This document shows positions 24,001 to 27,000 of a stretch of DNA of 64,000 nucleotides, piece by piece. The position numbers were made by a program. Each line of letters opens with the position of its first letter. Within the stretch, counting starts at the first letter, position 1. The stretch lies in NCBI RefSeq assembly GCF_000026545.1, contig NC_011601.1. One strand, written 5' to 3'. Source of the DNA: Escherichia coli O127:H6 str. E2348/69 (lineage in GTDB: Bacteria; Pseudomonadota; Gammaproteobacteria; Enterobacterales; Enterobacteriaceae).

Positions 24001-27000
24001 GCCAGATACCGGTAAACAACATTGCCAGTAAAGAGCCGAGGATCACATCGCCGCTTCGCCATAACGCCGTATCAATTTCACCTGTCGGGGAACCCACAAC
24101 AATTGCCAGCGTCACCCCAATCAATAAACCTTGATACGGTTTCTTGCCCAGCGCCAGCCAACCGCAAAGAAACATAGCCGCCGCGCACCAGACTAACATC
24201 AGCGGTAACGAGATTAACTCCAGTTGCAGAGCGATAAGACCTAAAATCGAGCCCAACACCGTACCGCCAATACGTTCGAAGGCACGAGGGACAACGTTAC
24301 CCCAGAACGAGATTGGCCCCATAATCACAACCATGGTGACCAGCGGCCAGGTGCTTTCCGGGATAGTAAACAGGCGGATAATGAGAAAAGTGAGCAGGAA
24401 TGCCAGCGCGACCCGAGTACCATGCACAATGCGGTAATGGCGGTATACCCGGATTTCAAACGGGCTTAATGACTTATCGGCACGCACGCAGAAACTCCGT
24501 AATGAAGATTAAAAGCGCTCATAACACATCTGTCGGCCAGAAGGCGCGCCTCTGAGTTATCCGACGGACATACCGGGAACAGTGTAATTTCCCGGCAGGA
24601 GCGAAAAATTTGAAAGGCGCATCTTACTCTTTTCGCTTTCAAAAAAAGAGTGGTCTTCGCGTTAACACACCGCCCTGAGATGAATTAGTGATGTTTTGGC
24701 TGCACCGCAACATACATTTCGATATCCTAGTACCCATCTTCCGCGCCATTGTTCAAGTAAACCTCGAAGCAGGGCTTTGGTAACATTTCATAAGCACTGT
24801 CCTGCAAGAGGCTATTAAAGAACTGATACCAGGGTTTAGCAAAATCATCACCGACTACACGAGCCACCGCCACCGCATACTGACCACCTGAAATTTCTGT
24901 CAGAATGACGCCCTCACTGTTGTCGGGGAGCGTAAAGTTATTCGGTACCGTCACGACGGTGTCGCAGCGTAATTTTTCGGCGGGTGTTTCATCTGGATTG
25001 TCGTAATAGACAGCAACCCACTCCTTCGGCACAATATTTTTGCTATCTATCCACATCATCAACTGCTCAAAACCTTTCTTTACCGTCTGCTCCCACGGGC
25101 CAACAAGATGGAAACCTGCAACGGTACGTTTATCTTCCTGCTTAATCTCGTAGTTCATGACGCCTCCACTAATACTGTTTTTATATACAGTATAGTTGCA
25201 ATATTAAAACCACAAGGAATGAGTGTTGATTATGCGAGCAGACTCGCACTCCTGCCAGTCTGCTGCAAAAGAAAGGTCAGGCCTTATGGTGGAAATAATC
25301 ACTCAGGCGGGAAAACATGCTGCCTTCCCCGACAGATTCCAGGGTAACCAGCGGCCAGTGCGCCACCTGTTTATCACGGTCGTAAAGTTCAATTTCCCCT
25401 ACCCGCTGATGGGCGCTAATTGGCGCGGTGAGTTCTTTACCATCAAGGGTATATTTGGCTTTGATATGTGGAATTTCGGCTTTCGGTAGCACCATCCAGA
25501 ACTCTTGTTCCGTTCCCAGGGCGATATTTTCTTTATCACCATACCAGATGCGTTCCGTACCGACCTTTTTCCCACGGTGCAAAATTTGCACCGTAGTAAA
25601 GTTTTGTTGCCCCCAACGCAGTAATTTTCTTGCCTCTTCCTCACGACCTTTTGCGCTGTCAGCACCCATTACCACTGCAATGAGGCGACGCTGCCCGTCT
25701 ACAGCCGAAGCAATAAGATTAAACCCGGCACCAGAAGTATGGCCCGTTTTCAGGCCGTCAACATTCATGGTTTTATCCCACAATAACCCGTTACGGTTTT
25801 GCTGGGTGATACCGTTCCAGGTGAGGCTTTTCTCACTGTACATATGATAAAACTCGGGCTCGCCGTGGATGATAGCGCGAGAAAGCACAGCTAAATCATA
25901 AGCCGAGCTATGCTGGCCAGGTGCATCCAGACCATGCACTGTTTCAAAATGCGTATCCTTGAGATGCAGCTTCTCGGCATAGTTGTTCATCATTTCAACA
26001 AACTGCCGTTGCCCACCGGCAATATAGTCAGCCAGTGCAACACAAGCGTCATTTCCGGAATCCACAATTAAACCACGGCTTAAATCACGTACCGATACGC
26101 GATCGCCCTCTTTCAAAAACATCAGTGAAGAACCGACAAACACCGGATTATCTTTCGCCCACGCATCACGCCCCACGGTGACAATATCGTCCGGCGTAAT
26201 GCGATGACTATCGATAGCGCGATCCACGACATAGCCCGTCATCAGCTTTGTCAGGCTGGCGGGATTGCGCTGTTGATGCTCATTACCCGCGGTGAGAATC
26301 TGACCGGTGGTGTAATCCATCAATACCCAGGACCCGGCATGAATCTCTGGAGGCTGAGGTGAAAAAGGAATGTTTTCCGCCGCAAAACCAGACGATAAAT
26401 TAAAAACGAACAAAGAAGCAGCAATAATAAGACGGCGTTTCAACAGCAAACCCTCAGGTGTTTCAAATAGCTGTTCTTTTTACGGAAATACTTATGAACT
26501 GGCTGGAATAAAGTGCAAGAAAATGTGACTACTATCTCATTTTTATCTGACATGATCTGTTGCCACTCGCTGCCAAATTGTCGCGCTAAAGCTGATTAGC
26601 ACGGTGATATTTGATACTCTGGCAGACGGCAGAAATAACGGATTTAACCTAATGATGAATGACGGTAAGCAACAATCTACCTTTTTGTTTCACGATTACG
26701 AAACCTTTGGAACGCACCCCGCGTTAGATCGCCCTGCACAGTTCGCAGCCATTCGCACTGATAACGAATTCAATGTCATCGGCGAACCCGAAGTCTTTTA
26801 CTGCAAGCCCGCGGATGACTATTTACCCCAGCCTGGAGCAGTATTAATTACCGGTATTACCCCGCAGGAGGCACGGGCGAAAGGAGAAAACGAAGCCGCG
26901 TTTGCCGCCCGTATTCACTCGCTTTTTACCGTACCGAAGACCTGTATTCTGGGCTACAACAATGTGCGTTTCGACGACGAAGTCACACGCAACGTTTTTT

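Follow-up and report, generated by a model that had tools for sequence, protein, structure and literature searches.

We conclude, with a probability of about 0.88, that E. coli O127:H6 strain E2348/69 carries a genuine LexA operator and an unchanged control region in front of sbmC (gyrI), together with a strain-private nonsense mutation, W144*, that probably cripples the SbmC protein. The gene lies on the minus strand of the window (the whole 64-kb stretch of DNA analysed here), where the truncated coding sequence, 143 codons followed by TAG, occupies positions 24727-25158.

A sequence-only reading of this DNA had placed a near-consensus SOS box at 25173-25192, 15 nt upstream of sbmC. The box was recovered at these coordinates, with an exact core and arms and a low heterology index (HI). 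Read directly, the plus strand at these positions is TACTGTTTTTATATACAGTA, and the sense (minus) strand of sbmC is TACTGTATATAAAAACAGTA. The sbmC ATG is the complement of 25156-25158, and 14 nt (25159-25172) intervene between it and the box, the end of which falls at -15 as proposed. The surrounding interval, 25159-25276, coincides precisely with the gap between the two genes, 118 nt from the dacD stop to the sbmC start. Within a TACTG(TA)5CAGTA pattern, the CTGT-N8-ACAG core and the TACTGT and ACAGTA arms were exact. The core was matched once in the window, at the sbmC box, against 0.61 matches expected, and the longer form TACTGT-N8-ACAGTA was also matched once, against an expectation of 0.00 (100 shuffles).

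Scoring with a LexA matrix, which had been suggested as a check on the box, gave the same answer. The HI matrix was built from 27 published LexA sites; umuDC, whose box is the same 20-mer as that of sbmC, was omitted. As a guide, functional LexA sites generally score below about 15 and strong sites below 5. The sbmC box had an HI of 1.39 when its sense strand was scored and of 3.08 for the plus strand, and nothing came close to it, the second-best LexA-like site of the window reaching 8.5 and the minimum over 30 simulated 64-kb sequences being 7.9. The HI of 2.8 published for the identical K-12 sequence is the safer value; it ranks fifth from the bottom among the classical SOS genes of Table 1 in PMC11228462, or fourth when only distinct operators are counted. 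On the strength of its sequence, the palindrome at 25173-25192 is a genuine LexA operator of sbmC.

The second-best LexA-like palindrome of the window, TACTGATAATTTAATCAGTA at 57540-57559 (HI 8.5-9.8), sits between galF (56480-57373) and the first gene of the O-antigen cluster (57616-58611). It is probably a chance match, since it scores at the level of the random simulations and has a CTGA/TCAG core, not CTGT/ACAG.

The sequence, position and context of the sbmC box show no departure from E. coli K-12, and the operator is one that was already known. All 20 positions match the box of K-12 MG1655, and the two strains share the dacD-sbmC-yeeA context, the distance to the ATG and the overlap with a TATACT hexamer. 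The E2348/69 box is therefore orthologous to an operator with experimental LexA dependence, K-12 sbmC being induced 5.7-fold by AZT and showing a lexA dependence of 9.5-fold (PMC11228462, which tabulates values of Courcelle et al. 2001). The differences from K-12 lie elsewhere. The 118-nt intergenic regions are 97.5% identical, with three single-base differences, one upstream and two downstream of the box, and the E2348/69 gene itself has W144* and E79D. The boxes of umuDC, tisB and dinD are of the same class, near-consensus to TACTG(TA)5CAGTA and with HI values below 3 (PMC11228462). They serve other genes, however, and sbmC is in addition under stationary-phase/RpoS control and responds to UV in two phases.

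Conservation of the box extends beyond these two strains. Across seven diverse E. coli, 19 of its 20 positions were invariant and the last was A or G, with several of the immediately flanking positions variable. Citrobacter, Salmonella salamae, Lelliottia and Kluyvera each have a recognisable LexA box at the corresponding position before sbmC. Salmonella sbmC is reported to respond to SOS induction and to have its box 21 bp away from the start codon (PMC8072944). All 118 intergenic nucleotides of E2348/69 were the same as in strains with full-length sbmC. Together with the perfect match to the K-12 box, this supports, at the level of sequence, the earlier view that SOS control of the gene is intact.

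A different arrangement was seen in E. coli MS 115-1 (NZ_CP146665.1; L006, 701-1249), where similarity upstream of sbmC ends about 70 nt from the ATG and the usual place of dacD is taken by a phage Gp27-family gene; the LexA box and proximal promoter are kept, and the distal block described below is lost.

Candidate promoter elements overlap the operator or lie upstream of it. On the minus strand, TATACT overlaps the first 4 nt of the LexA box and is a likely -10 hexamer; it was invariant in the seven E. coli sequences and present or nearly so in the other genera. With the preceding C it reads CTATACT (25189-25195), the -10 form favoured by sigma-S. Such a -10 fits the reported dependence of sbmC on RpoS (Oh et al. 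2001, cited in PMC6231494) and the missing sigma-70 promoter prediction for the K-12 gene, whose induction by UV shows a second, late peak (PMC5999292). Stationary-phase and RpoS regulation of sbmC were described by Baquero 1995 and Oh 2001 (via PMC10886550, PMC5999292 and PMC6231494). Our scan of 24600-25400 for sigma-70 consensus promoters agrees with the absence of a sigma-70 prediction, as it did not find a proximal sbmC promoter and returned as its sole match the distal CTGGCA-18-CATAAT. A candidate -35, TTGTGG (25210-25215, minus strand), lies 15 nt upstream of TATACT. Its TTG is conserved across genera, and the spacer is 15 nt in E. coli versus 17 nt in Citrobacter and Salmonella. Given the shorter spacer, E. 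coli sbmC may use another -10 register (TACTGT) or have a weaker, sigma-S-dependent promoter. Between the box and the ATG, 4 nt before the latter, is a Shine-Dalgarno sequence, GGAGG (25163-25167, minus strand), which was invariant across genera, with variation there in some E. coli strains.

The regulation that this layout suggests is as follows. A LexA dimer would bind both half-sites, CTGT and ACAG, which overlap the likely -10 (CTATACT) and the region, some 15-35 nt ahead of the ATG, in which transcription would start, and bound LexA would exclude RNA polymerase from the sbmC promoter. Upon DNA damage, activated RecA would bring about LexA self-cleavage and so allow sbmC transcription, to which RpoS would add induction in stationary phase. 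In E2348/69 the transcript is most likely still damage-induced, its product being a truncated and probably destabilised or inactive SbmC. LexA binding, induction and the promoter assignment in this strain are all predictions from sequence.

Further upstream, a conserved distal block, CTGGCA-N18-CATAAT (25258 to 25229), was identified by the promoter scan and by cross-genus alignment; with an associated hairpin it spans 25229-25264 on the minus strand. The stretch GAGTGCGAGTCTGCTC-R-CATAAT was nearly invariant in five genera (E. coli, Citrobacter, Salmonella, Lelliottia and Kluyvera). The block overlaps an imperfect hairpin with 12-bp arms (25237-25248 and 25253-25264) located just after the dacD stop. 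We considered this hairpin as a conserved terminator and rejected it, because covariation across genera was poor (term +1.32) and the left arm was not conserved, being missing in Salmonella. An Rfam scan of 24400-25500 gave nothing meaningful, its sole match being to a snoRNA model (E = 0.91). The block may serve as a distal promoter or bind a protein, or it may mark where the dacD transcript ends. From the aligned sequences, its conservation looks like that of primary sequence, as in a distal sbmC promoter or protein-binding site, rather than that of a terminator.

The claim of a premature stop in sbmC also held. At 24727-24729 E2348/69 has TAG where close relatives have TGG, a single G-to-A transition (at 24728) that yields W144* and a product of 143 amino acids instead of 157, the last 14 residues being lost. 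The untranslated 3′ remnant of the gene, DIEMYVAVQPKHH followed by the original TAA, occupies 24685-24726 on the minus strand and is the same as in full-length alleles. A second change seen only in E2348/69 is E79D (GAA to GAC, 24922, minus strand). Glutamate was present at this position in the six other E. coli alleles examined. The column is not invariant, as two orthologues from other genera (P0027 and P0118) have D.

The truncation removes conserved structure. In an AlphaFold model of full-length SbmC (20 aligned sequences, pLDDT 93.6) a 12-residue final beta-strand was predicted at 143-154, and it is this conserved strand that, according to the model, W144* takes away. The motif WDIEM (144-148) was invariant in all 19 full-length homologues aligned, which came from E. 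coli, Citrobacter, Salmonella, Kluyvera, Lelliottia and metagenome sequences. The premature stop thus removes conserved sequence, as in a pseudogene. The 143-residue product matched the Pfam GyrI-like model (PF06445) with 106.9 bits against a cut-off of 26, covering model positions 1-140 of 155; the full-length protein covers 1-154. A complete GyrI-like domain, with both SHS2 halves and the last strand, is accordingly lacking. The K-12 protein is identical to the SbmC/GyrI structure 1JYH (157 aa, GyrI-like SHS2 fold). Compared with 1JYH, the E2348/69 product is 95% identical over residues 1-143, with seven differences, and is without residues 144-157, the final beta-strand included.

Loss or strong impairment of SbmC function is likely on the basis of the sequence comparison and the model. 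It is uncertain because the two SbmC peptides reported to bind gyrase, residues 33-48 and 89-96, are both kept in the 143-aa product and because RefSeq/PGAP still annotates this product as an ordinary CDS, not as a pseudogene. These same facts could be taken to mean that the 143-aa SbmC is fully or partly functional, and that the box has been kept by selection on SOS-controlled expression, not owing to the youth of the mutation. By itself, peptide 89-96 (8 residues) is enough to inhibit gyrase in vitro (PMC10886550), and the product scores above the cut-off of the NCBIfam SbmC equivalog NF007451 (272.9 bits versus 179, coverage 1-143 of 157). We nevertheless regard a functional product as improbable. 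The predicted strand that is lost is a long core strand, and WDIEM does not vary across genera. All SbmC orthologues from other genera in our alignment are 154-157 aa long, and the shortened allele is limited to one strain. In addition, sbmC of this strain has a second private amino-acid change, whereas yeeA and dacD differ only synonymously. Impairment of SbmC by W144* remains our preferred interpretation. A literature search for papers mentioning both E2348 and sbmC found none.

Among the SbmC homologues collected, four proteins (P0016-P0018 and P0020) were called as 223 aa and contain the full 157-aa query at 98-100% identity, with about 66 extra residues. One 223-aa protein has helix-turn-helix Pfam matches. 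These proteins may be alternative start calls or fusions.

Among complete E. coli genomes, the W144* allele is restricted to E2348/69 and its derivatives. An exact match to the 61-mer centred on the TAG was found in 3 of 5,426 complete E. coli genomes, namely E2348/69, “E2348/69 variety 2” and an artificial E2348/69-derived construct. Another 5,399 genomes matched at 95-99% identity, with 60 of 61 positions identical among the matches listed. The exact 143-aa protein (WP_001105371.1, CAS09699.1) was present on 54 contigs. Two of these were sampled (GCA_000442065.2 and SRR1554980) and matched the window at every position over 3.4 kb. The 54-contig spread thus shows one clone and not a widespread allele.

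That every complete genome with the TAG traces to E2348/69 would also be expected if the stop had arisen through faulty sequencing or assembly, or as a mutation of a single laboratory stock. However, the stop is present in the independent assemblies CP059840.2 and LT827011.1, in the protein accession CAS09699.1, in the separate draft GCA_000442065.2 and in the run SRR1554980, the exact protein being found on 54 contigs in all. The independent assemblies rule out a base-calling error, and we consider an origin of this artefactual or single-stock kind the least probable of the alternatives. The mutation may be older than all laboratory stocks and yet absent from wild relatives.

E2348/69 had two differences from the closest allele in about 1.2 kb (24329-25538). 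Against the commonest B2 allele (that of FDAARGOS_536 and others), 2 of 801 nt differed, producing E79D and W144*, both in the coding sequence. Relative to FDAARGOS_536, sbmC therefore has two protein-altering and no synonymous changes, whereas yeeA and dacD have nucleotide differences and identical proteins. This excess of protein-altering change is suggestive of relaxed constraint on sbmC; with n = 2, we draw no conclusion about selection from the sequences.

The sequence-only reading had further argued that an SOS box retained upstream of a broken gene makes the nonsense change recent. Its view of the age is right, but not its reasoning. At this divergence a 20-bp site should have gained about 0.03-0.05 substitutions, so that in more than 95% of cases the box would have survived unchanged even without selection, and it is nearly silent on age. 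What marks W144* as recent is instead that the allele is restricted to E2348/69 and its derivatives and that the sequence past the stop is undecayed, the 13 codons and original TAA beyond it being unchanged with respect to full-length alleles. As a point of method, at such divergence a mutation cannot be dated by an unchanged 20-bp site beside it, but it can be by the distribution of the allele across genomes.

The same calculation bears on the idea that the box owes its retention to something other than sbmC, such as read-through from the sbmC promoter into yeeA. In the sbmC-yeeA gap (about 200 nt), simple and insensitive scans detected no canonical intrinsic terminator and no sigma-70 promoter, and read-through into yeeA may occur. 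As the explanation for the intact box we consider it very unlikely. An unchanged 20-mer needs no selection at this divergence, and yeeA is not named in the main text of one paper on the LexA regulon. The low divergence between these strains is, in our view, sufficient for the box to have stayed as it is.

The local gene order is pdu - tmaR - yeeA - sbmC - dacD - sbcB. The pdu/cob region adjoins sbmC in both E2348/69 and FDAARGOS_536, the two B2 strains, and in FDAARGOS_536 (L011, 12022-13030) pduO is annotated as frameshifted.

The SOS box of sbmC is textbook material, and public annotation already contains the truncated allele (WP_001105371.1). More tentatively, and as a suggestion that we think unlikely, E2348/69 might be a natural sbmC hypomorph or null that makes an SOS-controlled 143-aa fragment with both gyrase-binding peptides. 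If this were true, the strain could be more sensitive to microcin B17 and to other gyrase- or DNA-damaging agents, the fragment could act as an altered gyrase binder, and DNA-damage results from E2348/69 might not transfer to other E. coli. As a reference EPEC strain E2348/69 is in wide use, and it is probably without a fully functional gyrase-protecting SbmC. Experiments on microcins, quinolones and the SOS response in this strain could be affected.
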